DNA from: an uncultured Ruficoccus sp.
GTDB taxonomy: Bacteria > Verrucomicrobiota > Verrucomicrobiia > Opitutales > Cerasicoccaceae
Reading direction: 5' to 3'
Assembly: GCA_965140785.1 (NCBI GenBank)
Contig: OZ223519.1
Location: 224,001-288,000, forward strand
DNA: 64,000 nucleotides
The translations under genes and the position numbers were made by a program. The notes beneath the pieces are model-generated. The model was not told the origin of the DNA. It saw only the letters and a list, made by a program, of their open reading frames with translations, and made no database searches. Positions 30,642 to 44,217 of this stretch are shown piece by piece. How positions within the stretch are numbered: the first letter of the stretch is position 1; every line of letters begins with the position of its first letter.

Positions 30642-30711
30642 AATATCGACCGGTACAGATGGGTAGAATGCATCTGTGCTGGTCGAATATTGAGAAAACT
30701 GTATCTGTACC
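30642..30711. promoter_or_regulatory. MocR-type operator: inverted repeat plus direct repeat of ATCTGT
   Basis: TCGACCGGTACAGATG (30646-30661) / CATCTGTGCTGGTCGA (30671-30686), 14/16; third half-site TATCTGTACC at 30702-30711. Confidence 0.6.
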
Positions 30712-30740
30712 TGTCTGGGAAATCTGCTAGAGTACTTCCC

Positions 30741-32225
30741 ATGTCGACTGAGACAGCCAGCGGGGAATACCTGTACGAGCGCATCGCCCGGCAGCTGGAT
30801 GTGCAGATCCAGGAGGGCGTTTTCCGGGTCGGGGAGCGCTTGCCGTCGGTGCGCCAACTGTGCGCGAGCGAGCGGGTCAGTCCGGCCAGTGCCATGCAGG
30901 CACTCTCCCTGCTGGAATCGCGTGGGCTGATCGAAGCCCGGCCCAAGTCCGGCTTTTTCGTGCGCAACCGGCGGGCGGACGCCGCACCGAGCCCGAAACC
31001 GACCAGCTGCAAACTCGAGCCGCACATCGTCGGCGTCTCCGGGGTGGTGGCACAGGTGTTTTATCAGGCCGGGGACGACAAGATGGTGCCGCTCGGGGCG
31101 GCCCTTCCGGACCCGCGCCTACTGCCTAACGAACGCCTCTCGCGCTGCCTGGCCCAGCTCGCTCGTTCCGAGCCCGAGTGCCTGGGACGCTACGACATTC
31201 AGGCGGCCCACCCGGAACTACTACGGCAGTTGGTGCGGCGGTTTGCCTCCTATGGCTGCCACGTCCCGCAAGAGGAGATCGTGGTGACTTTCGGGGCGAT
31301 GGAGGCGCTGAACCTGGCCATCCGGGCGGTGACGCGGCCCGGCGATATCGTGGCAGTCGAGTCGCCCTGCTATTTCGGCATCCTCGAGATTCTGGAAAGC
31401 CTCGGCCTGCGCGCCCTGCCGGTGCCCGGCACCTGCGAGGAGGGCATCGATCTGGGCCTGCTGGAGGACGCGATTGAGCGCCACCGGGTCAAGGCTCTCG
31501 TGCTGGTGCCCAGCTTCAACAATCCGAACGGAAGCTGCATGAGTGACGCCCACCGGGAGCGCTTGATAAACCTGCTGGCCGACCACGCGATCCCGCTGGT
31601 GGAGGACGATATTTACGGAGATATCCACTTCGGCCCCGAGCGACCGCGCCCGGTCAAGGCGCTCGACCGCGACGGGCTGGTCCTGTACTGCGGGTCCTTC
31701 TCCAAGACCCTCTCGCCCGGCCTGCGGGTAGGATGGGTGGCGGGGGGCCGTTACGCCGAGCAGGTGCAGCGGCTCAAGTACATCTCGACCATCACCACGC
31801 CGAGCATCAACCAACTCGCCATTGCGCGCTTTCTGGAGTCGGCGGCGATGGACCGGCACCTGCGCACGCTGCGGCAGGCCTTCCGCACGCAGGTGGCGCA
31901 GGTCAGCGAGGCGGTGCTGGAGTCGTTCCCGGCCGGGACGGCGCTCAGCCAGCCGGCGGGCGGCTTTTATCTGTGGGTGCAGTTGCCCGAGCGCGTGGAC
32001 GCACTCGAACTGCACCGCTTGGCCGCTGAGGAGAGCATTAACATCGCGCCCGGCCAGATATTCTGCCCGCACACGGACATCACCAATCGCATCCGCCTCA
32101 GCTGCGGTTATCCCTGCGACGAGCGTATCCGGAAATCAATACGCACGCTGGCCCGGCTTGTGCGCCAGCTTGAGTCCGGCAGCGTCAAGCCTTGTACACT
32201 AAAAAGGAAAACCCCTTCTGCCTGA
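30741..32225 (+). CDS. MocR/GabR (GntR HTH + PLP aminotransferase) regulator, YdcR-like
   Basis: GERLPSVRQL..ARPKSGFFV HTH; NNPNG, EDDIY, GSFSKTLSPGLRVGW. Confidence 0.92.
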   Translation: MSTETASGEYLYERIARQLDVQIQEGVFRVGERLPSVRQLCASERVSPASAMQALSLLESRGLIEARPKSGFFVRNRRADAAPSPKPTSCKLEPHIVGVSGVVAQVFYQAGDDKMVPLGAALPDPRLLPNERLSRCLAQLARSEPECLGRYDIQAAHPELLRQLVRRFASYGCHVPQEEIVVTFGAMEALNLAIRAVTRPGDIVAVESPCYFGILEILESLGLRALPVPGTCEEGIDLGLLEDAIERHRVKALVLVPSFNNPNGSCMSDAHRERLINLLADHAIPLVEDDIYGDIHFGPERPRPVKALDRDGLVLYCGSFSKTLSPGLRVGWVAGGRYAEQVQRLKYISTITTPSINQLAIARFLESAAMDRHLRTLRQAFRTQVAQVSEAVLESFPAGTALSQPAGGFYLWVQLPERVDALELHRLAAEESINIAPGQIFCPHTDITNRIRLSCGYPCDERIRKSIRTLARLVRQLESGSVKPCTLKRKTPSA

Positions 32226-32275: not shown

Positions 32276-32821
32276 TTAGTTTACTACGTGCTTGAGCAGG
32301 GAGCCTCCCAGCCCAAGAAAACGGTCTCGCAGCCGGAGCCTAGCTCCGCGGGCTTTCAGGTATTCAACCACGTCGCGTTGGCCGAACATGGCGGCGAAGG
32401 CGATAGGCGTCATCCCGCCGCCGTTGTCCGCCTCGGTGTCGGCGCCGTGCTCGACGAGGAGCTTGACCTGATCGAGGTATCCCTTGAAGCAGACGCCACC
32501 CAGCGGGGTTTGTCCGCGATCGTTGCGCCGGTCCACCTCCGCGCCCAGCTCGAGCAGCATTCGGGTGGTCTCCGTATTGCCGTTATAGCTGGCGAGCATG
32601 AGCAGGGACTGGCCCTTGTGGTCGCAGAGATTGACCGGCAGTCCCGCCTCGATCATGAGCCGCAGCATCTCGGTCTCGCCGTGGCGGGCGAAATCAAGCG
32701 CCTGTCGCTGAAGTTCGGCGTAGCGGGCTTCTTCGGCTTCGGTCAGCACGGTTTCAGCGGCAATGTTGCTCTCAGGCTGCATCTGACGGGAGGAATTTTT
32801 GTCTTCGTATTGGATTTCCAT
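32276..32821 (-). CDS. Ankyrin repeat protein (catalase-associated, AnkB-like)
   Basis: GQSLLMLASYNG, GQTPL..VCFKG and GMTPIAFAAMFG repeats; directly downstream of catalase; start may be 32782. Confidence 0.9.
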   Translation of the reverse strand: MEIQYEDKNSSRQMQPESNIAAETVLTEAEEARYAELQRQALDFARHGETEMLRLMIEAGLPVNLCDHKGQSLLMLASYNGNTETTRMLLELGAEVDRRNDRGQTPLGGVCFKGYLDQVKLLVEHGADTEADNGGGMTPIAFAAMFGQRDVVEYLKARGARLRLRDRFLGLGGSLLKHVVN

Positions 32822-32843: not shown

Positions 32844-34292
32844 TCAGTCCGGAACGGGCAGACCGACGGCTTTGGCTACGCCCTCGCCGTAGGCGGGATC
32901 TACATGGGTGAAGAGCTCGATCTGGCGCAGCTTGATCTCGTCGGGAACGCCCTCCATGGCGGCGGCGATGTTGCCGAAGAGACGTTCGCGTTGTCCCTCG
33001 TCGAAGAGGTTAAAGAGGGCGCGGGGCTGCGAGAAGTCGTCGTTGCCTTCGCGGTGGTTGTAGCGGTCGGCGTCGCCGTCGATGCGCAGGGGCGGCTCGG
33101 CCACGGACGGGTCTTCCTGCGGTCCGTTCATGGAGTTGGGCTCGTAGTAGGCGTCCGGGTTCTCGTTAAAATTGTCGAAGAAACGCATGAGGCCGTCCTT
33201 GTGGTAGTGGTGGACGGGGCTCTTCGGGCGATTGACGGGCAGGGCCTCGTAGTGCGTGCCCAGGCGGTAGCGGTGCGCGTCGGCGTAGGAGAAGACGCGG
33301 GCCTGGAGCATCTTGTCCGGCGAGTAGCTGATGCCGGGCACGATGTTCGAGGGGGAGAAAGCCGCCAGCTCGATGTCGGTGAAGTAGTTCTGCGGGTTGC
33401 GGTTGAGCTCCAGCTCGCCGACTTCGATCAGCGGGTAGTCCCCGTGCGGCCAGACCTTGGTCAGGTCGAAGGGATTATAGGGCGTCTTTTCGGCGTCCTT
33501 CTCGGGCATGACCTGGATGAAGAGCTTCCATTTGGGGAACTTCTTGTTTTCGATCGCGCCGAACAGGGCCTCCTGGTAGCTCTCGCGCGTCTTGCCGATG
33601 AGCTCTTCGGACTGTTCGTTGGTGAAGTGCTTGTGCCCCTGCTGGGTCTTGAAATGGAATTTGATCCAGTAGCGCTCGCCCTTGTCGTTCCAGAAGCTGT
33701 AGGTGTGCGAGCCGTAGCCGTTCATGTGCATGGGCGAGATCGGGATGCCGCGGTCGCTCATAAGGATAGTGACCTGATGCAGGCTCTCGGGCGAGAGCGA
33801 CCAGAAGTCCCACATGGCGGTGGGGGAGCGCAGGTTCGTGCGCGGGTGGCGCTTCTGAGTGTGGATAAAGTCAGGGAACTTGTACGCGTCGCGCACGAAG
33901 AAGACCGGCGTGTTGTTACCTACGAGGTCCCAGTTGCCCTCATCGGTGTAGAACTTTAACGCGAAGCCGCGCACGTCGCGCTCGGCGTCGGCGGCCCCCA
34001 TTTCCCCGGCCACGGTGGAGAAGCGGGCCAGCATCTCGGTCTTTTTACCGACCTTGGAAAAGATGTTCGCGCGGGTGTACTGGGTGATGTCGTGAGTGAC
34101 GGTCAAGGTGCCGAAGGCCCCCCATCCCTTGGCGTGGACGACACGCTCGGGGATGCGCTCGCGGTTCTGGTGGGCGAGTTTTTCCAGCAGTTGGTAGTCC
34201 TGCATGAGCAGGGGGCCGCGTGCGCCCGCGGAGAGGGAGTTCTGGTTGTCGGCGATGGGATTGCCGGCGGTGGTAGTCAGTCGTTTGGCCAT
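32844..34292 (-). CDS. katA: Monofunctional heme catalase (small subunit)
   Basis: [44 protein letters not shown]. Confidence 0.97.
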
Positions 34293-34412: not shown

Positions 34413-35306
34413 ATGGAAATGCATCAGCTACGTTACTTCGTGGAGCTGGCCCGGCAGGGGAATTTCTCGCGGGCGGCGTCGGCGTGCTACGTTTCCCAGC
34501 CCTCGCTGAGCCAGCAGATCATGAAACTGGAGGACGAGCTGGGGCAGCCGCTGCTCCACCGCACTCGCCGCGGGGCGCGACTGACGCACTTCGGCGAGGC
34601 CATGCTGCCGCGGGCGCGGCGCATCCTGCTGGAGGCCGAGTGCATCCGCGACGAGGCCCAGGCCCACAACGACGTAGCCTGCGGCAAGATCAACGTCGGG
34701 GCCATCCCGACGATTGCCCCGTTTCTGCTGCCGGCGCTGATGGGGCGCTGCCTGGCGAACTACCCGCGCATGCAGCTCTCGCTGGTCGAGGACACGACGA
34801 ACGACCTGGTGGCGGCCCTGCGCAACGGGCGGGTTGACTTCGCCCTGATGAGCCGACCCTATCCCTGGGAGAATGAGCTGGATTCGGTCACGCTCTGTGA
34901 GGACGAGTTGCTGGTCACCCTGGCCGAGAATCACCCCCTTAACAAGCGCCGCCGGATCAAGCTGGAGGAATTGGCCGAGTACCCGATGGTCGTGATGAAG
35001 GACATGCACTGCCTCGGGCGCCAAAGCATTTCCCTGTGCGAATCTTCGGGGCTGAGCCCGAAGGTCTCCATCGAGAGCTCGCAACTGGAAACAGTGGTGT
35101 CGCTGATCGAGGGCGGGTTGGGCTTTTCCTTTATCCCGAAAATGGCCGCCACGCAGATGACGCACCGCAGGGTCGGCTTTCACTCGGTCGCGCCCAAGCC
35201 TGTCAGCCGCGCCATCGTCCTGGCCTGGATGCGCGACACCAGCCTGACGCGTACCCAGAGTACCTTCCGTGACGAGGTGGAGGCATTCTGCCGGGAGCGG
35301 GGGTAG
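34413..35306 (+). CDS. oxyR: LysR family H2O2-sensing regulator OxyR
   Basis: LysR HTH (CYVSQPSLSQQI), IPTIAPFLLP, HCLGRQSISLC redox Cys pair; divergent from catalase. Confidence 0.85.
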   Translation: MEMHQLRYFVELARQGNFSRAASACYVSQPSLSQQIMKLEDELGQPLLHRTRRGARLTHFGEAMLPRARRILLEAECIRDEAQAHNDVACGKINVGAIPTIAPFLLPALMGRCLANYPRMQLSLVEDTTNDLVAALRNGRVDFALMSRPYPWENELDSVTLCEDELLVTLAENHPLNKRRRIKLEELAEYPMVVMKDMHCLGRQSISLCESSGLSPKVSIESSQLETVVSLIEGGLGFSFIPKMAATQMTHRRVGFHSVAPKPVSRAIVLAWMRDTSLTRTQSTFRDEVEAFCRERG

Positions 35307-35407: not shown

Positions 35408-36283
35408 ATGAAACCGACTCTCCTTGTTCTCGCCGCTGGTATGGGTAGCCGCTATGGTGGCCTCAAGCAACTCGACCCCATGGGCCCGCAGGGGGAGACG
35501 CTGCTGGACTATTCGCTGCGCGATGCGCGGGCGGCGGGCTTCGAAAAGGTGGTCTTCGTCATCCGGCGCGAGTTCGCCGACGCCTTTCGGGCGGGGGTGG
35601 GGGACAAGGTGGCCGATGTCATGGAGGTCACTTACGCTTTTCAGGAACTGGGCGACCTGCCGGAGGGTTTCTCCGTGCCGGAGGGGCGGGTGAAGCCGTG
35701 GGGGACCGCTCACGCCATCCGCGCGGCCCGCGAGGGGGTGAGTGATCCTTTTATCGCCATCAACGCCGACGACTATTACGGGGCCGATGCCTATGCGCGT
35801 ATTTTAAACCACCTGCGCGGGCTCGACCCTTCTGACGCCAGCGAGCTGTGCATGGTCGGCTATCCGCTCAAAAACACGCTCTCGCCCCACGGGAGTGTCA
35901 ACCGCGGCATCTGCCGCCTCGACGGCGACCGGCTGCAAAGCGTGGAGGAGCACACGGACATCCGCGAGGAGGCCGACGGGAAAATCCGCGGCGAGAATCT
36001 GGCCGGCGTGCGGGTGGAGATTCCCGCCGAGGCGCCGGTCTCGATGAACTTCTGGGGCTTCACCCCGGCGCTCTTCGGTGTGTTGGAGGAGCATTTTACG
36101 TCGTTTTTGAAAGAACACGGGACGGAGGACAAATCCGAGTGCTACATCCCGACCGTGGTGGACGAGCTGATCCGCGCCGGACGCGCCCGCTGCACGGTCC
36201 TGCCGACGAGCGGGGAGTGGTTCGGCGTGACCTACCCGGCGGACAAGGCCCGCGTGCAGGAGAGACTGCTTGCGTTGAAGTGA
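35408..36283 (+). CDS. Sugar-phosphate nucleotidyltransferase family protein
   Basis: LAAGMGSRYGGLKQ, KPWGTAHA, INADDYYG, SMNFWGF, WFGVTYPAD. Confidence 0.88.
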   Translation: MKPTLLVLAAGMGSRYGGLKQLDPMGPQGETLLDYSLRDARAAGFEKVVFVIRREFADAFRAGVGDKVADVMEVTYAFQELGDLPEGFSVPEGRVKPWGTAHAIRAAREGVSDPFIAINADDYYGADAYARILNHLRGLDPSDASELCMVGYPLKNTLSPHGSVNRGICRLDGDRLQSVEEHTDIREEADGKIRGENLAGVRVEIPAEAPVSMNFWGFTPALFGVLEEHFTSFLKEHGTEDKSECYIPTVVDELIRAGRARCTVLPTSGEWFGVTYPADKARVQERLLALK

Positions 36284-36502
36284 GACGTCGCGTGTGGAGG
36301 CGGGGTTTTATCCGTCAGCCCGCGTGTCCGGGCTGGGGTGGAGAAGGGATGCTGTGTCTCCAGTCGGGTAACTTCCGTTTCCGGCAGTGCTAGCTGTGGG
36401 GGGAAAGCCTCAAAAATCCCTGTAACATCCGGTAAAAGGATAATTCGCGCTGGATATCAGGGATGAAGGCCGTTTGAGTGGGGCGATAACCCCTCTTGTT
36501 AT

Positions 36503-37600
36503 ATGGCAGAAAAAGCGGTTCTCGTTGATAAACTTCCTCCTGTAAGATCGAAAGCGGATGCCCCCGCGCCGGTAGAGGCGCAACAGGGTGAGTATAAAAC
36601 GTTACTCTCCGGTGACACGGCCCAGCCGGTCACGACCCACACGGAGGAGCCCGCGCCCGCCGAGGTGACGATCACGGCTTTTGACAAGCTGACGTATCAG
36701 TCCTTTCTGCTGGACCTGATCGTCTTCGGACTGATGGGGACGTTTTTCCTGGCCCAGGCCTTTCGCCGTCGCGCGCAGGTGCACTTCGGAGGGATGGTTG
36801 GCTTCGGGGTCTTCCTCTACGTGCTGGCGGCGAGCTTCTTCATCGCCAAGTCCGGGTACGCGGAGTTTCTCCGGGGCGAGTCTGAGTCCTATAATCTGCT
36901 CGTGCGGGGTGTGTGCTGGACGATTCTGGCGCCGTTTCTTTTCGTCATGCTCTCTCGGCTCATCCACGTGGCGAAAAAGGACCTGCCGGTGTACATCGTC
37001 ATGTTCGGTATGGCGGCGGGGCTGTTCTTTTTTATCGCGCTGTCGAACTTCGGGAGTATGCCGCAGGGCTTCCAGTTGGTGTTCGCACTTGGCTCCTTCA
37101 CCTGCTCGGCCAGCCTGATCGTGATGCTGTTCTTTACCTTGGGCTCCCTGCCCGAGGAGGACGTGCCGGAGAATCTGCGCCGCGGTGTGACCATCATCGT
37201 GTTGGTGATCGCCTGCGGCTGGTTTCTGTATCCGTTTCTCAACCTGCTCTCGCGCTTCCTGCCGAGCAGCTCGCTCTATCCATTCCTGCTTAACCTGGTG
37301 GACCTGGTAACGGTGGGGCTGATCGCGTACGGATTCTATCAGGGAGCCGGTCACCAGGCGGCCCGAATCGTGATGAAGCCCGCCTTCCGCAAGGCCCGGA
37401 TCGCCCCTTCCACCATGGAGGTGCAGGAGATTATCGAGGACGAGGAACCCGTGGCGAACGAGGACGCCGCCTACGTCAACGAGCCGAAGGAGGAGATTGC
37501 CGAGATGAAGGCCGACGGGGAATCCGAGAATCAAGCCGCCCGTCCCAAGCCGAAATTCCGCCGCCCGGCCAAGCGTATGCAAGACCCCGGCGACTCCTGA
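36503..37600 (+). CDS. 7-TM microbial rhodopsin-like protein lacking the Schiff-base lysine
   Basis: Seven hydrophobic segments; RGVCWTILAP matches RYIDWLLTVP, GWFLYP matches GWAIYP, NLVDLVTV matches NLADFVNK; charged N- and C-terminal tails. Confidence 0.7.
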   Translation: MAEKAVLVDKLPPVRSKADAPAPVEAQQGEYKTLLSGDTAQPVTTHTEEPAPAEVTITAFDKLTYQSFLLDLIVFGLMGTFFLAQAFRRRAQVHFGGMVGFGVFLYVLAASFFIAKSGYAEFLRGESESYNLLVRGVCWTILAPFLFVMLSRLIHVAKKDLPVYIVMFGMAAGLFFFIALSNFGSMPQGFQLVFALGSFTCSASLIVMLFFTLGSLPEEDVPENLRRGVTIIVLVIACGWFLYPFLNLLSRFLPSSSLYPFLLNLVDLVTVGLIAYGFYQGAGHQAARIVMKPAFRKARIAPSTMEVQEIIEDEEPVANEDAAYVNEPKEEIAEMKADGESENQAARPKPKFRRPAKRMQDPGDS

Positions 37601-37693: not shown

Positions 37694-38608
37694 GTGTCTT
37701 CCAAATCGTCCTCTCCTCAACCCTCCCTTATCATTTTTGGCTGTGGCTATGTCGGCAGCGAAGTCGCTCGGCAGGCCCTGCAAAAGGGCTGGCAGGTCCG
37801 CGCCCTGACCCGTAACGCGGAGAAGGCCGAGGCCCTGCGCGAACTGGGGTTGACCCAGGTCGAAGTGGCCGATCTCGACAGCCGCGAGTGGCACGACAAG
37901 TTCGAGCCCGAGCAGGACTTTGTCCTGAACTGCGTGAGCTCCGCCGGGGGCGGGCTCGACGGCTATCGCAAGTCCTACATCGAGGGGCAGCGCTCGATCC
38001 TGGAGTGGGCAGCCGGCTGGCATATCGGCACCTACGTCTATACCGGTGCGACCAGTGTGTACCCGCAGGCCGACGGCGAGTGGGTGGACGAAACCGCCTC
38101 CAGTGAAAACGCCTCTGATCACGGCAGCCTGCTGCTGGAGTCCGAAGAGCTGCTCAAGGGCGCGCGGGGGCTGAGCCGGTGGTTTGTGCTGCGTCTGGCC
38201 GGGATTTACGGGCCAGGTCGGCACTACTTTGTGGACATGCTGCGGGCGGGCAAAACAGAGTTCCCGGGCTCGGGCGAAACCTGGCTCAACCTCATCCACC
38301 GCGACGACATTGCGCGGGCGGTTTTCGCCGCCTTCGAGGCACCGGCCGAGATCGCCAACCGCATTTACAATGTGGCCGATGGCCACCCGGCCCCGCGTGG
38401 CGAGATCATCGGCTGGCTGGCGCAGCAGTGCGGGCAGCCCGCCCCGACCTTCGAGCCCGCGCAGTCGCGCGCACGTGACAGCGGGCGGCGCTCGGCGGGC
38501 GGGCAACTGCCAAACCGCCGCATCGACGCCGGACTGATTCGGAAGGAGCTTGGGTGGGAGCCGGCTTATGTTACATTTCGTGACGGCTTCACCGAAGTGT
38601 TACAGTAA
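37694..38608 (+). CDS. NAD-dependent epimerase/atypical SDR (YeeZ-like)
   Basis: IFGCGYVG, LRLAGIYGPGR, NLIHRDD; start uncertain (GTG 37694). Confidence 0.85.
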   Translation: MSSKSSSPQPSLIIFGCGYVGSEVARQALQKGWQVRALTRNAEKAEALRELGLTQVEVADLDSREWHDKFEPEQDFVLNCVSSAGGGLDGYRKSYIEGQRSILEWAAGWHIGTYVYTGATSVYPQADGEWVDETASSENASDHGSLLLESEELLKGARGLSRWFVLRLAGIYGPGRHYFVDMLRAGKTEFPGSGETWLNLIHRDDIARAVFAAFEAPAEIANRIYNVADGHPAPRGEIIGWLAQQCGQPAPTFEPAQSRARDSGRRSAGGQLPNRRIDAGLIRKELGWEPAYVTFRDGFTEVLQ

Positions 38609-38650
38609 AGGCTTTGCCAGCCGGGGGGCGGTTGTGGCTTTTCTGAAAGC

Positions 38651-40045
38651 ATGCCGCCTCTCGCTCGATTCGGACTCTGGTGTGTCCTGTCGGCTTTGCT
38701 GACCGCGCTGCCCGTATTCGCGGCAGACGAGGAGCTGATTCGGCTGCTGGAGGAGAAGGGCTACCTCAGCCAGAAAGAGGCGGACGAGATCCTGCAAAAC
38801 CAGGGCGAGTTCACCTTCAAGCCCAACACGCCGCGGACGGAGGAGCTGAGTGTGGGCGTCATGTTGCAGTTCCAATACAACTACATGGAGGTGCATAATG
38901 ACGGAGGCGCTAATCCGGCCACGCGGAATAACTTCCAGCTCCGCCGGGCCTATCTGATTTTACAAGGTGAGATCGGCGACGGCTTCGGCGCGGTGTTCGT
39001 GCCGAACTTCGGGGACGGTAAGGTGCGGCTGGACCACGCCTATCTTTACAAGACGGTGGAGAACCCGGATATCAATCTGTATGCCGGGCTGCGCAAGGTG
39101 AGATTCGATCGGGAGTCGTACGGCTCCACGGAAAAGCTGCGTACGGTCGAGCGCTCCATCGTGACCGAGTACTGGGGCAACGATACCGGCACCGAGAACG
39201 AAATCCCCGAGGGCACGGAGGCCGACGGCGACTTGGGCTTCGCCGCCCAGCACATGGGCCTCTTTGGGGACTGGGAAATCGACGACAACTACGGGCTGGA
39301 GGTTGCGCTGGTCAACGGCTACGCCTCCTACCTGCCGGGTAATAATTTTCAGAACAAGCTCGGCGCCTATGTGCAGTTGCGCACGGCCTGGGACCTGGCC
39401 GCCTCCAAAGACGAAAAGATGACCCTCGAGGCCGGGATCAACACCGGCTTTCAGCCCTCGGGCAATTCCTTCTGGCAGCCGACCGTCGATGGCACGAGTG
39501 CGACTATGCGGATCGGCAACTCCGACTCCGACGCCTCCTCCATCGGCGTGAACCCCTACGTGGCTTTCCAGTGGGAGGATTTCATGCTTTCGGGCGAGTT
39601 TCTCATGAACTGGATCGAGCACGGCAAGCTCTACACCAACAGCCAGCTCGTCGCCAGTGTGGGTGGCAGCTCACCGGCCTCCGGGCAGGCGATGCCCTGG
39701 GGGGTAATCGTCACACCCTCGTACCGTTTTTATGAAGACTACGAGGTGGTCTTTCAGTATGCGTTTTTGAACACGGACGGCCGTGGGGCCCAGGTGGACC
39801 GGACCATCCCCAACGCGCCCGATGCGGGGCGGCTGTTTTTCAACGAGGCGCAGTCCTACTACCTCGGGTTCAACTGGTACATCTTCGGCGACGACCTCAA
39901 GCTCCAGTTCGGCTACAATTTTATCCAGTACTCCGGCCAGTACACCCTGCCAAGCGGGGGCGTGGTGACGGCGAACGACGGGAGCTTCAACGGCCCCGGC
40001 TACGACGTGCATGTCTTCCGCACCCAGCTCCAGGTGGTCTTTTAG
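38651..40045 (+). CDS. Outer-membrane porin (phosphate-selective porin O/P-like)
   Basis: Signal peptide, LIRLLEEKGYLS N-terminal motif, FQLRRAYL, TVERS, LGFNWY...LKLQ, C-terminal RTQLQVVF. Confidence 0.75.
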   Translation: MPPLARFGLWCVLSALLTALPVFAADEELIRLLEEKGYLSQKEADEILQNQGEFTFKPNTPRTEELSVGVMLQFQYNYMEVHNDGGANPATRNNFQLRRAYLILQGEIGDGFGAVFVPNFGDGKVRLDHAYLYKTVENPDINLYAGLRKVRFDRESYGSTEKLRTVERSIVTEYWGNDTGTENEIPEGTEADGDLGFAAQHMGLFGDWEIDDNYGLEVALVNGYASYLPGNNFQNKLGAYVQLRTAWDLAASKDEKMTLEAGINTGFQPSGNSFWQPTVDGTSATMRIGNSDSDASSIGVNPYVAFQWEDFMLSGEFLMNWIEHGKLYTNSQLVASVGGSSPASGQAMPWGVIVTPSYRFYEDYEVVFQYAFLNTDGRGAQVDRTIPNAPDAGRLFFNEAQSYYLGFNWYIFGDDLKLQFGYNFIQYSGQYTLPSGGVVTANDGSFNGPGYDVHVFRTQLQVVF

Positions 40046-42100: not shown

Positions 42101-42120
42101 ATCTCCTCCATCTTCTCTCC

Positions 42121-42576
42121 ATGATTTCCTTTGAACAGGGCCTTTATGCTGGAGAACACCGGCATAATCTGGACGCCAAAAAGCGTCTGACGGTCCCGTC
42201 GAAATGGCGTTTCGACGGGGACGAGAATGCTCTGTACCTCGCCTTTGCCGACCCCAGCGGCTGCGTGACCGTTTATCCGCCCAAGATGGTGGAGCAGCTC
42301 AAGGCCCGCTTGTCCTCAATCAGCCTGGGTGACAAGAAAGGCCAGCGCGCGATCATGCGGCTGCTCGGGCAGTCGGATCAGTTCACTTTTGACAAGAACG
42401 GACGCATCAACCTCAACGACCGCCTCTACCGGCACGCCGGGATCGAGAAGGAGGTCGTGCTGGTGGGCACCGTGAACAAATTCCACCTCTGGGAGCCGGA
42501 CCGCTACGAGGCCTACATCGAGGCCGACGAAGACGACGGCGATCTCAGCGATGTCCTCACCGAACTCGGACTCTAA
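42121..42576 (+). CDS. mraZ: Division/cell-wall cluster transcriptional repressor MraZ
   Basis: LDAKKRLTVPSKWR and FDKNGRI repeats; first gene of the dcw cluster. Confidence 0.93.
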   Translation: MISFEQGLYAGEHRHNLDAKKRLTVPSKWRFDGDENALYLAFADPSGCVTVYPPKMVEQLKARLSSISLGDKKGQRAIMRLLGQSDQFTFDKNGRINLNDRLYRHAGIEKEVVLVGTVNKFHLWEPDRYEAYIEADEDDGDLSDVLTELGL

Positions 42577-42614
42577 CTTTACAACGTTTCTTCTTTTTTA
42601 ACCGAACACCAACC

Positions 42615-42821
42615 ATGAGAATCAGCCAGGAACTCTATAACGCCGGTATCCTGGGGCGCCAGGAAACCCGTAAACCGACCACCTTCGAGGTGGTTGCCCG
42701 TCACGCCCCGCGCTTTGGCGAGGGCGGTCCTCTGTTCGAGGCCTTCCAACGCCGCGAGCAGTCCACCAAAGTCAACGCCCGCGGATGGAGAGCCCTCTCC
42801 CATGTGCTTCGCCTTCGCTAG
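42615..42821 (+). CDS. Putative 68-aa small protein between mraZ and rsmH
   Basis: ATG after an A/C-rich leader; fills the 273-bp gap; GC-rich third codon positions. Confidence 0.5.
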   Translation: MRISQELYNAGILGRQETRKPTTFEVVARHAPRFGEGGPLFEAFQRREQSTKVNARGWRALSHVLRLR

Positions 42822-42849
42822 GTCGGCATGGGACGCCCTCGTTTATAAG

Positions 42850-43794
42850 ATGGCCGGTCACCTGCCCGTGATGCTGCGAGAGGTGCTCGCTCTCCTCGCG
42901 CCGCAGCGGGGCGGGCATTACCTGGACGGCACTTTCGGCGGCGGCGGCCACAGCCGCGCTATCCTGGAGGCCAGTCCGGAGGTTCGGCTGACCGCGTTGG
43001 ACCGCGACCCGGAGGCCGCCCTGCGGGCCCAGCGATTCCGCGAGGAGTTCGGCCACCGTTTCACTTTTCACCACCTGGAGTTTTCTCAACTACAAACACT
43101 GACTGATCAAGATTACGCCGGGGCTCTTTTCGACCTCGGCGTATCCTCTTTCCAACTCGACGAGGCCGAACGCGGCTTCTCCTTCGGCAAACCCGCCCCC
43201 ACCGACATGCGTATGGACCCCGACTCCGGCCAGAGTGCCGCCGACTTTCTCGAGACCGCTCCCGAGCGCGATCTCGTGCATGCGGTGCGCGACCTGGGCG
43301 AGGAGCAGTCCTGGCGCCGGGTGTGCCGGGCGATCGTCGATGCCCGTGGCACGGGTGCGCTCGCCCGGACCGACTCGCTGGCCGAGCTGGTGGCCGCGGC
43401 CATCCCGAAGCGCGGCGGCAAGCCCGCCCGTATCCATCCGGCGACCCGGACCTTTCAGGGCATCCGCATGGCGGTCAACGACGAGTTGGGCGTGCTGGAG
43501 CGCATGCTCCCCGCCGCCTTCGCGCGGCTGGCCGTGGGCGGCGTCCTGGCCGTGATCACTTTCCACTCACTGGAAGACCGTCCGGTGAAACGCTTTTTCA
43601 ACCGCCTGGCGGGCCGTCCCGAGCACGCCGGCGACTCCCGTCCCCAGGACGAGCGGGTCAAGCTGGCCGAGCTGCTGACACGCCGCCCGCTGAGCCCGGA
43701 CGAGGACGAACTGACCGCCAACCCCCGGAGCCGTTCGGCCAAGCTGCGCGCCGTGCGCAAGCTTGAGAGCGCTCCCGAACTTCAACCTGCCTGA
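42850..43794 (+). CDS. rsmH: 16S rRNA m4C1402 methyltransferase RsmH
   Basis: HLPVM, DGTFGGGGHS, DLGVSS, RGFSF, HPATRTFQ, FHSLEDR, NPRSRSAKLR. Confidence 0.96.
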   Translation: MAGHLPVMLREVLALLAPQRGGHYLDGTFGGGGHSRAILEASPEVRLTALDRDPEAALRAQRFREEFGHRFTFHHLEFSQLQTLTDQDYAGALFDLGVSSFQLDEAERGFSFGKPAPTDMRMDPDSGQSAADFLETAPERDLVHAVRDLGEEQSWRRVCRAIVDARGTGALARTDSLAELVAAAIPKRGGKPARIHPATRTFQGIRMAVNDELGVLERMLPAAFARLAVGGVLAVITFHSLEDRPVKRFFNRLAGRPEHAGDSRPQDERVKLAELLTRRPLSPDEDELTANPRSRSAKLRAVRKLESAPELQPA

Positions 43795-43797
43795 GCC

Positions 43798-44217
43798 ATG
43801 CATTACTTCAAAGACCTGAACTCTTACCGTTGGATTTCGATCGGCCTGTGCCTGGCCATCCTGCTGGTGGCTGTGGGCGGTTCGCTCGGCATCGTGTGGA
43901 TGCGCACCCAGATGACCGGCACGGCCCGCAACGTGGCGCAGATGGAGAAAGACCTGCGCGCCCTCGACAACGACAACGCCTCCCTGTCGGCGCGCATGGC
44001 CCGTGCCCACAACCCGGAATTTCTCATCACGCACATGCCCGCCGGTCTGCGCCCCACCAACGGCAACCAGATCGTGTGGATCCAGACCAGCGCCGCTCCT
44101 TCCTATGTGGCCCAGGCCCGCCAGAGTGCGCCCACCGAAATCGCCGCCAACACCAGCGCGGCTTCCGTCTCCTTTGACCTCGCCCTGATCAACCAGCCCC
44201 GGGACCCGCAGCCCTGA
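43798..44217 (+). CDS. ftsL: Cell division protein FtsL-like
   Basis: Single TM helix + coiled coil, located between rsmH and ftsI. Confidence 0.6.
   Translation: MHYFKDLNSYRWISIGLCLAILLVAVGGSLGIVWMRTQMTGTARNVAQMEKDLRALDNDNASLSARMARAHNPEFLITHMPAGLRPTNGNQIVWIQTSAAPSYVAQARQSAPTEIAANTSAASVSFDLALINQPRDPQP

Follow-up and report, generated by a model that had tools for sequence, protein, structure and literature searches.

The stretch of DNA analysed here, which we call the window, comprises 64,000 nucleotides of contig OZ223519.1 (positions 224,001 to 288,000, forward strand) from an uncultured Ruficoccus sp. of the Verrucomicrobiota. On its plus strand, flanked by a gene for an NTP-transferase (35408-36283) and by an 'Epimerase'-family gene of the short-chain dehydrogenase/reductase (SDR) type, lies an open reading frame (ORF; 36503..37600, ATG start, stop codon included in the span) encoding a protein of 365 amino acids that has the seven-helix fold of the microbial rhodopsins and lacks the Schiff-base lysine to which retinal is bound. 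We regard it as practically certain that this opsin-like protein is a retinal-free, 'blind' descendant of the type-1 microbial rhodopsins, and that it represents a previously unannotated family which, among the genomes searched, is confined to one order of Verrucomicrobiota. A preliminary description, made from the sequence alone, had proposed a Lys-less rhodopsin homologue in this frame, and re-reading the sequence returned the same 365-residue frame and the same helix motifs, namely S67-F68-x12-F81-F82 in helix A, R135-G-V-C138-W139-T-I-L142-A-P144 in helix C (36905..36934, +), G239-W240-F-L-Y243-P244 in helix F (W240 to P244 at 37220..37234, +) and N264-L-V-D267-L-V-T-V271 in helix G (37292..37315, +).

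The gene is preceded by 219 nt (36284..36502, +) between the end of the NTP-transferase ORF (36283) and the ATG at 36503, which we presume to be its promoter region, and in which a simple scan of the plus strand found no sigma-70-like site. The protein begins with a family motif of the MAEKxxLVxKLPPV type (residues 1-14, 36503..36544, +), followed by a variable Pro/Ala-rich linker that is predicted to be periplasmic (residues 15-58, 36545..36676, +), the seven-helix core (residues 59-282, 36677..37348, +), and a C-terminal tail, predicted to be cytoplasmic, that is basic near the membrane, acidic in the middle and basic at its end (residues 283-365, 37349..37597, +). Two short motifs stand out in this tail, a first KPxF[RK]K motif directly past helix G (K292-P-A-F-R-K297, 37376..37393, +) and a C-terminal basic motif (K349-P-K-F-R-R-P-A-K-R358, 37547..37576, +). 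An AlphaFold2 model, built on a 10-row family alignment, has seven helices (residues 59-88, 95-123, 130-154, 158-181, 188-214, 223-249 and 258-282), in agreement with the seven transmembrane segments first proposed, and the core block is modelled mostly at a predicted local distance difference test score (pLDDT) of 80-95. Residues 1-52 and 286-365 are disordered in the model, and the linker (15-58) has a pLDDT below 50, which fits the N-terminal extension of about 55 residues and the C-terminal tail of about 80 residues that had been described. Charge counts also bear out the acidic-then-basic character given to the tail, with five K/R and three D/E in residues 283-312, beside the membrane, two K/R and 12 D/E in residues 313-345, and seven K/R and two D/E in residues 346-365.

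The relationship to rhodopsins is carried by structure comparison and by profile-profile alignment. Searched against the PDB with Foldseek, the model had 30 matches at E ≤ 0.001, and all rows printed are microbial rhodopsins; the best match by E-value is 7q37 (E 4.5e-5), the highest target-normalised TM-score, 0.84, belongs to the MAR rhodopsin 8rso_A (root-mean-square deviation, rmsd, 2.6 Å over 225 columns), and further matches include Gloeobacter rhodopsin, xanthorhodopsin, Kin4B8 and Exiguobacterium sibiricum rhodopsin (ESR, 4hyj, TM-score 0.82). A Foldseek-independent comparison with 48,161 representative chains, using VIA-align, had only rhodopsins or rhodopsin domains among its first 36 rows (Z 24.3-15.6), and seven-helix proteins of other kinds begin only at Z 13.6, with TMEM87A, and include the adiponectin receptor and G-protein-coupled receptors (GPCRs). 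Heliorhodopsin 6is6 scores below the best type-1 rows (Z 21.0), and the heliorhodopsin model PF18761 is absent from the Pfam matches of the protein at E ≤ 10. At the sequence level, hhalign of 18 family members against 40 true rhodopsins gave a probability of 99.3% (E 3e-20) over 224 columns that cover all seven helices, so that the helix-by-helix register with proteorhodopsin-type helices, as judged from this alignment, is far beyond chance. The homology that had been claimed thus stands on Foldseek, VIA-align and hhalign together.

The evidence from single sequences is weak and is superseded by these comparisons. The Pfam model PF01036 (Bac_rhodopsin) scores the protein at 14.6 bits (E 0.024), below its cut-off of 24.6 bits, which only one orthologue, that of genome G073, just reaches (24.8 bits), and no NCBIfam family matches it; the direct profile check therefore fell short, and it is the family profile set against true rhodopsins that succeeds. 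In sequence searches of the PDB the best rhodopsin remained sub-significant, with E 0.11 in a single-sequence phmmer search and 0.092 with a 10-row profile, among rows of cyclin A2 and dopamine-transporter noise. A phmmer search of 1.84 billion cluster representatives with the opsin-like query returned 19 proteins at E ≤ 1e-3, two of which are PF01036-positive, P0019 (E 1.8e-6), labelled as bacteriorhodopsin of a Verrucomicrobiota metagenome-assembled genome (MAG), and P0022 (E 4.8e-5), with PF01036 scores of 134 and 139 bits, respectively. Of the 30 look-alikes proposed by a protein language model, 29 fall in PF01036 clusters (best value 0.91), which we treat as weak support because the recognition value of the query, 2117, is below the 2300 mark of the tool.

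In the hhalign register, a set of residues that line the chromophore pocket of rhodopsins is kept, while those that bind retinal and transfer protons are lost. R135, W139 and P144 correspond to R82, W86 and P91, and W240, Y243 and P244 to W182, Y185 and P186 of bacteriorhodopsin; N264 is also kept, and D267 is the equivalent of Asp212. The acceptor Asp85 is replaced by C138, Thr89 by L142, the donor position by M149, and the Schiff-base Lys by V271, the codon of which is GTG (37313-37315). Both the C-L-M triad in place of the ion-transport residues and the kept R, W, P, W, Y, P and D, as proposed in the preliminary description, are therefore as stated. The donor position is a Lys in the nearest rhodopsin clade, as it is in ESR. 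Other pocket positions have changed as well, the W138-type position being S202, the M118 position A172, and the G122 position mostly Phe.

These losses extend to the whole family. In an alignment of 43 distinct rows, which includes one 24-residue fragment (L032) and three truncated proteins, column 271 holds V (19), L (10), M (4), I (4) or F (2) in the 39 rows that have a residue there, and Lys in none; column 138 is D or E in none of 42 rows, and five true rhodopsins in the same alignment all have D at 138 and K at 271. A maximum-likelihood tree of 36 family rows and 40 true rhodopsins splits the two sets by one branch with a Shimodaira-Hasegawa-like approximate likelihood ratio test (SH-aLRT) value of 100 and a length of 3.8 changes per column. 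This tree, a quick and unrooted one with a single rhodopsin clade and with seven fragmentary or near-duplicate family rows left out, is consistent with a single ancient loss of the Lys. The Schiff-base Lys and the Asp85-type acceptor were thus probably lost before the family diversified, and the terminal motifs were probably gained.

The possibility that the gene is a decaying copy, with close homologues that keep the Lys, was also addressed. The ratio of nonsynonymous to synonymous substitution rates (dN/dS), estimated against three close orthologues with 74-83% protein identity (tblastn) and dS of 0.7-0.9, is 0.07-0.17 in the seven-helix core, 0-0.09 in the first 14 residues and 0-0.2 in the C-terminal motif, and rises to 0.39-1.04 in the N-terminal linker. 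All orthologues found are open frames, and none contains a stop. Because the orthologues are intact and the dN/dS is low, and since the homologues are Lys-less throughout, the question is answered in favour of the gene, and the comparisons support the view that the Lys and the acceptor are lacking throughout a family under purifying selection, and not through decay of a single copy.

The ends of the protein carry conserved peptide motifs. The N-terminal consensus reads M-[AS]-E-K-x-x-L-[VL]-x-K-[LI]-P-P-[VI], with M1, E3, L7, P12 and P13 invariant in 18 rows; it persists in branches with about 20% identity and is the most widely common feature of the family. Past it, the linker is rich in Pro, Ala and Lys and differs greatly between members in length and sequence. 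In the tail, the 10-row alignment shows no variation at K292, P293, K297 and A298, and the 18-row alignment almost none at P293 and F295 and none at K349, P350 and P355; the f34 branch (see below) has a related ...KPKKRF motif at its C-terminus instead. A regular-expression search of the six-frame translation found the N- and C-terminal motifs in the opsin-like gene and nowhere else in the genome. The positive-inside count, with nine K/R in the proximal C-tail and the AB, CD and EF loops taken together as opposed to two in the BC, DE and FG loops, suggests the type-1 orientation, N-out and C-in, rather than the inverted (N-in) topology of heliorhodopsins, and on this ground we place the N-terminal peptide in the periplasm and the C-tail in the cytoplasm.

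To delimit the family, we combined a word-indexed search with surveys of sampled genomes. The former retrieved ten related proteins, and those with names are all annotated as 'hypothetical protein', from Ruficoccus amylovorans (76% identity), a Puniceicoccales bacterium, and Verrucomicrobiota bacteria or MAGs. Of the 201 genomes sampled from the order of the window, 15 were found to carry the family, its own included, the others being nine of nine further genomes of f1 (the family-level taxon of the window), the single f15 genome, two of seven from f21, and two from f34. Across the phylum it is present in 12 of 401 sampled genomes, all twelve in the same order or closer, and it was not found in about 320 sampled genomes of other orders. 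The Verrucomicrobial clade that had been suggested is thus real, and narrower, since among the genomes searched the family occurs only in the order of the window. Two kinds of members can be recognised: one group, formed by the gene described here, those of f1 and f15, and several metagenomic proteins, keeps R135, W240, Y243, P244, N264 and D267, and the diverged groups f34 and f21 are without most of these residues. The f34 branch is nonetheless homologous, as our alignment A4 matches the f34 alignment A6 at 99.8% (E 7e-28) with the N-terminal motif included, and A6 matches true rhodopsins at 94.3% (E 9.7e-8); the core of the AlphaFold2 model of an f34 protein reaches a pLDDT of about 90, and every Foldseek row printed for it is a rhodopsin. 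One f21 genome (G054) has two opsin-like copies, about 94% identical, on separate contigs.

The sister branches link the opsin-like gene to regulatory genes. In a survey of 41 sampled f34 genomes, made with a single-protein query that may miss diverged copies, a 318-residue Hanks-type Ser/Thr kinase, the only Pfam match of which is the kinase domain, was found in 21 genomes and the opsin-like gene in 17. In all 17 the opsin-like gene lies directly upstream of the kinase gene, on the same contig and strand, with gaps between matched ends of 35 to about 1150 nt, the long gaps reflecting partial matches. Four genomes have the kinase only (in one case at a contig end), none has the opsin-like gene only, and 20 have neither. 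Two f34 loci (L033:7454-11478 of genome G162 and L034:4338-8264 of genome G178) show an array of four genes, for the opsin-like protein, the kinase, a 241-residue protein without a Pfam match and a ParA/MinD-like ATPase. In f21, the opsin-like gene is divergently paired with a gene for a receiver-AAA+ (NtrC-type) regulator in three of three loci, from two genomes (L031:7000-9516, L032:5599-8206 and L020).

We also looked for the partners that a light-driven rhodopsin would have. The genome of the window, 90.85% complete, contains no second PF01036 match, and neither Blh, nor an RPE65-type carotenoid oxygenase, nor a lycopene cyclase above the cut-off was found in it; it does have three matches of the phytoene/squalene-synthase type (PF00494). 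Of the blh and crt-type genes searched for, only this last type was found. Canonical rhodopsins (PF01036 E 1e-30 to 1e-39) occur in two of 16 f1 genomes, and the third f1 match above the cut-off is the opsin-like gene itself, at 24.8 bits. One of the two genomes (G134) has a canonical rhodopsin gene (C1:847002-847649) and an opsin-like gene in unlinked places, and the other (G586) has a canonical rhodopsin at two places. As most carrier genomes searched have no canonical rhodopsin, the opsin-like protein cannot merely modulate a pump, and, as judged by gene content, the family is independent of a canonical rhodopsin pump.

In the branch of the window, the only constant neighbour is the gene directly downstream. 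It encodes a 304-residue extended-SDR ('Epimerase'-family) protein (37694..38608, +), for which the start, GTG at 37694, was deduced from the starts of orthologues, leaving a gap of 93 nt to the opsin-like gene. A consensus scan found no terminator-like site between the two genes and a terminator-like hairpin 3' of the SDR gene (38618..38634, +); the scan found eight sites in total, compared with 5.2 expected by shuffling. The protein matches PF01370 (E 1.3e-17) and has a GCGYVG motif, and its closest solved relatives are the uncharacterised structural-genomics proteins 3gpi (E 1e-29) and 3ius. In hidden Markov model alignments to GalE (2c20) and to the SDR 8rdg, the columns of the catalytic Tyr and Lys hold Gly or Ser and Leu, and a 12-row alignment shows no invariant Tyr or Lys in the catalytic stretch. 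As the canonical Tyr-x3-Lys is missing, the protein, which probably binds NAD(P), may do so without the usual catalysis.

In f1 and f15, 11 of 11 related loci have the SDR gene directly 3' of the opsin-like gene and read from the same strand, and the adjacency holds down to 34% identity of the opsin-like proteins. We initially considered the two as an obligate functional pair, a view that was downgraded because the SDR is found in 116 of 201 genomes of the order (E ≤ 1e-40, mostly once each), compared with 15 of 201 for the opsin-like gene, and is unlinked to it in f34, where it lies on other contigs; it also occurs in many taxa without the opsin-like gene. A complex prediction for the two proteins, made without controls, scored 0.00 against a mark of 0.32 and bears on the pairing in neither direction. 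What the loci suggest is a conserved co-location, perhaps with co-transcription.

The remaining neighbours of the opsin-like gene turn over. They comprise a LysR-family regulator, a catalase, an ankyrin-repeat protein, a porin, an NAD kinase and the start of an mraZ-rsmH cluster, and among the nine neighbouring genes scanned there is no carotenoid, blh or transducer gene, as had been noted, and no flotillin or NfeD domain. The NTP-transferase gene is kept in three of 11 related loci, and a functional coupling to it, to the LysR-catalase-ankyrin genes or to the porin was rejected, as these are kept in genus-level relatives only. On the minus strand, the gene of the ankyrin-repeat protein (32276-32821, -) comes after the catalase gene (32844-34292, -), which is divergent to that of the LysR-family regulator (34413-35306, +); this trio is kept in a same-genus relative (L021) and resembles the katB-ankB/OxyR arrangement known from Pseudomonas. 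In another locus of the same genus (L022, 8245-10027, genome G011), about 1.8 kb separates the opsin-like and NTP-transferase genes, as compared with 219 nt in the window, which suggests an inserted gene or element. The porin-like gene (38651-40045), which follows the SDR gene in same-genus relatives only, encodes a 464-residue protein that has a signal-like segment at its N-terminus and partially matches phosphate-selective porin O/P (E 1.9e-9). Further out, the window holds a 511-residue MocR-type fusion of GntR DNA-binding and class I/II aminotransferase domains (30690-32225), and the start of a cluster of the division/cell-wall type (42118-44217) with MraZ (42118-42576), the RsmH/MraW methylase (42694-43794) and then a 139-residue ORF without a Pfam match and with one hydrophobic stretch, possibly FtsL-like.

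What the opsin-like protein does can be approached only through this pattern of losses and gains. As the retinal-binding Lys was lost within a small conserved family, a role without light is probable; the light independence assumed in the preliminary description thus becomes likely, given the absent Lys and given that no Blh or RPE65-type enzyme was found in a genome that is 90.85% complete. In our view, the protein may be a light-independent seven-helix sensor or adaptor of the inner membrane, and we give this reading a probability of about 0.45. It draws on the rhodopsin fold, the loss of both the retinal linkage and the acceptor, the constraint on core and motifs, the independence from a pump, and the gene linkages of the sister branches. 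The kept polar and aromatic residues R135, W139, W240, Y243, P244, N264 and D267 would form a buried cluster in the extracellular half. The input might come from a ligand that occupies the vacated chromophore cavity, from pH (through protonation) or voltage acting on the R135-D267 pair, or from a periplasmic partner met by the tethered N-terminal peptide. Such a cue would shift helices F and G, as in sensory rhodopsins, and the shift would alter how the KPxF-type motifs of the cytoplasmic tail engage a soluble partner. In the sister branches, this partner would likely be encoded next door, as the Hanks Ser/Thr kinase without transmembrane segments or as the NtrC-type response regulator, and in the branch of the window the constant neighbour is the Tyr/Lys-less, probably NAD(P)-binding SDR-type protein.

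Several observations weigh against this sensor or adaptor role. No classical signalling gene adjoins the opsin-like gene in this branch, among the nine neighbours scanned, and a search of the genome of the window for the f34 kinase gave nothing at E ≤ 1e-10. The SDR is widespread, and unlinked in f34, so its adjacency is perhaps synteny inherited by two related family-level taxa and not functional coupling. The f34 and f21 genomes are kin, so that their counts overstate the number of independent events, and the branches linked to the kinase and the regulator are without R135, W240, Y243 and D267, so that their function may differ from that of this branch. Folding alone might account for the conservation of the core residues, AlphaFold2 shows both tails as disordered and without docking, and a periplasmic N-terminal tail of 55 to more than 100 residues without a signal peptide would be unusual. 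The earlier suggestion of a receptor that signals through its tail therefore finds indirect support: the tail motifs are among the most widely conserved features, and sister branches are linked to a kinase or an NtrC-type regulator, but the constant neighbour in this branch is a widespread SDR, and the kinase of f34 was not found in the genome.

A bolder extension, which we put forward tentatively and consider somewhat doubtful, is that this order has turned the type-1 opsin fold into a general receptor of seven helices that works without light, a bacterial analogue of the eukaryotic GPCRs with branch-specific soluble transducers. The input would be the N-terminal peptide on its flexible periplasmic tether together with the vacated cavity, the output would be the basic KPxF-type motifs of the tail, and the transducers would be the Hanks Ser/Thr kinase, the NtrC-type sigma-54 activator and the catalytically dead NAD(P)-binding SDR.

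The alternatives differ in how much of the conservation they account for. The protein could be a non-signalling membrane helper that acts as a scaffold for, or regulates, other membrane proteins or the organisation of the membrane, with tails that tether it to partners or to acidic lipids. Roles of this kind have been proposed for the fungal opsin-related proteins Hsp30, Yro2 and Mrh1, for Rh-noK, which would regulate a neighbouring pump, and for the flotillin-associated rhodopsins. Published Lys-less or retinal-free rhodopsins are discussed in this way in bioRxiv 10.1101/2025.04.29.651185, and the structure of the retinal-free PsFAR (9r21_A) matches the model of the opsin-like protein with a TM-score of 0.78 and that of the f34 protein with 0.79; the tails are basic and disordered, and no signalling gene adjoins in this branch. 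On the other hand, there is no pump to regulate in this genome or in 14 of 16 f1 genomes, there is no flotillin or NfeD among the nine neighbours scanned, and the strict kinase linkage of the sister branch is left unexplained, so that we consider a helper role rather unlikely. A passive activity in the membrane that needs no light, for instance the scrambling of phospholipids or the passage of protons, ions or water through a leak or channel, has a precedent in a proteorhodopsin reported to scramble lipids and to benefit E. coli without light or retinal, and in bacteriorhodopsin and an animal opsin, which are cited as scramblases (PMC10730872). The buried Arg135-Asp267 pair and N264, which are kept in this branch, would be compatible with it, but the features kept most widely across the family, the N-terminal peptide and the C-terminal motifs, are not needed for it, the residues at the D85 and donor positions vary or are hydrophobic, and sister branches persist without the Arg-Asp pair; we find such an activity improbable.

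Binding of a pigment is more improbable still. A photoreceptor or pigment protein might use the aromatic pocket of W139, W240, Y243 and P244, all four conserved in this branch, to bind retinal, a carotenoid or some other polyene without a covalent link, and the three PF00494 matches in the genome and the pigmentation of named relatives would agree with this. No member of the family has the Lys, however; neither Blh, an RPE65-type oxygenase nor an above-cut-off lycopene cyclase was found, the W138-, M118- and G122-type positions are changed, and the sister branches are without the aromatic residues, which makes this a very improbable explanation. That the gene is a relic in decay, with no present function, would explain why the residues needed for the ancestral function are gone, but is scarcely credible, as selection and conservation already contradict it: every orthologue is intact, the core evolves under the low dN/dS given above (at a dS of 0.7-0.8), conserved motifs were added, and the gene is present in all nine other f1 genomes sampled.

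Homologues of rhodopsin that lack the Lys are common, and among them the family described here offers an unusually clean test case, being alone in most of its genomes and under purifying selection. The peptide motifs it has gained are open to mutation or to use as baits, Ruficoccus amylovorans, a named and presumably cultivable species, has a relative, and in a sister branch a fixed opsin-like/kinase gene pair provides a direct biochemical read-out. It also illustrates how such proteins escape annotation, being below the Pfam cut-off and having named relatives that are called 'hypothetical protein'.

Among known systems, SRII-HtrII and Anabaena sensory rhodopsin-ASRT are retinal photoreceptors with dedicated partners, and the logic proposed here resembles theirs, in that a seven-helix core would relay its change of conformation to the product of an adjacent gene. 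In contrast to them, the nine neighbours of the opsin-like gene include no gene of the Htr/methyl-accepting chemotaxis protein type or of the ASRT type, and the genes linked to the family are those of the kinase, the NtrC-type regulator and the SDR. The nearest true rhodopsins by sequence are the proteorhodopsin/xanthorhodopsin pumps, in particular a Verrucomicrobial clade with a 'DTK' motif (P0019, P0022 and relatives) and ESR, which shares the same seven-helix fold (4hyj, Z 23.3, rmsd 2.3, 215 residues). The opsin-like protein has in common with the proteorhodopsin-type pumps R82, W86, P91, W182, Y185, P186, N-x-x-D212 and, probably, the topology, and differs from them in the absence of the Lys, Asp85, Thr89 and the donor, and in its terminal extensions with family motifs.

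Closer in character are rhodopsins that have themselves given up retinal. More than 10% of known microbial rhodopsins are without the Lys (PMC10730872). The Rh-noK proteins are likewise otherwise rhodopsin-like homologues in which the Lys is replaced, and they are found in tandem with, or in genomes having, a working proteorhodopsin (bioRxiv 10.1101/2025.04.29.651185), unlike the opsin-like protein, in whose own genome no canonical rhodopsin was found and which has also lost the acceptor Asp and added tail motifs. The flotillin-associated rhodopsins (FArhodopsins, FARs) are retinal-free members of the fold as well, PsFAR being the one that matches our model, and the donor position is a Met in both (M90 in PsFAR, M149 in the opsin-like protein); in many FARs the pocket is blocked and the Lys retained, and FARs are flotillin-linked and co-occur with proteorhodopsin (same preprint), whereas the opsin-like protein has neither the Lys, nor a flotillin gene among the nine neighbours scanned, nor a proteorhodopsin paralogue. 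The haloarchaeal and fungal opsin-related proteins (ORPs), to which the preliminary description rightly pointed, are Lys-less, expressed, without canonical retinal binding and proposed to sense stimuli other than light (Becker et al. 2016, PMC4915679); they differ in lineage, being from archaea, fungi, some cyanobacteria and chlorophytes, and are not known to share the tail motifs. The string 'Verrucomicrobi' occurs in neither PMC4915679 nor bioRxiv 10.1101/2025.04.29.651185, and a limited literature search, which is not proof that the family is unpublished, found no Verrucomicrobial family of Lys-less rhodopsins. As Lys-less type-1 opsins are already known, the opsin-like protein is not a new kind of protein. 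What appears to be new, judging from the sequences compared here, is a family of one order that stays below the Pfam cut-off, with added N- and C-terminal motifs, loss of the acceptor beside that of the Lys, independence from a rhodopsin paralogue, and the kinase and regulator linkages of its sister branches.

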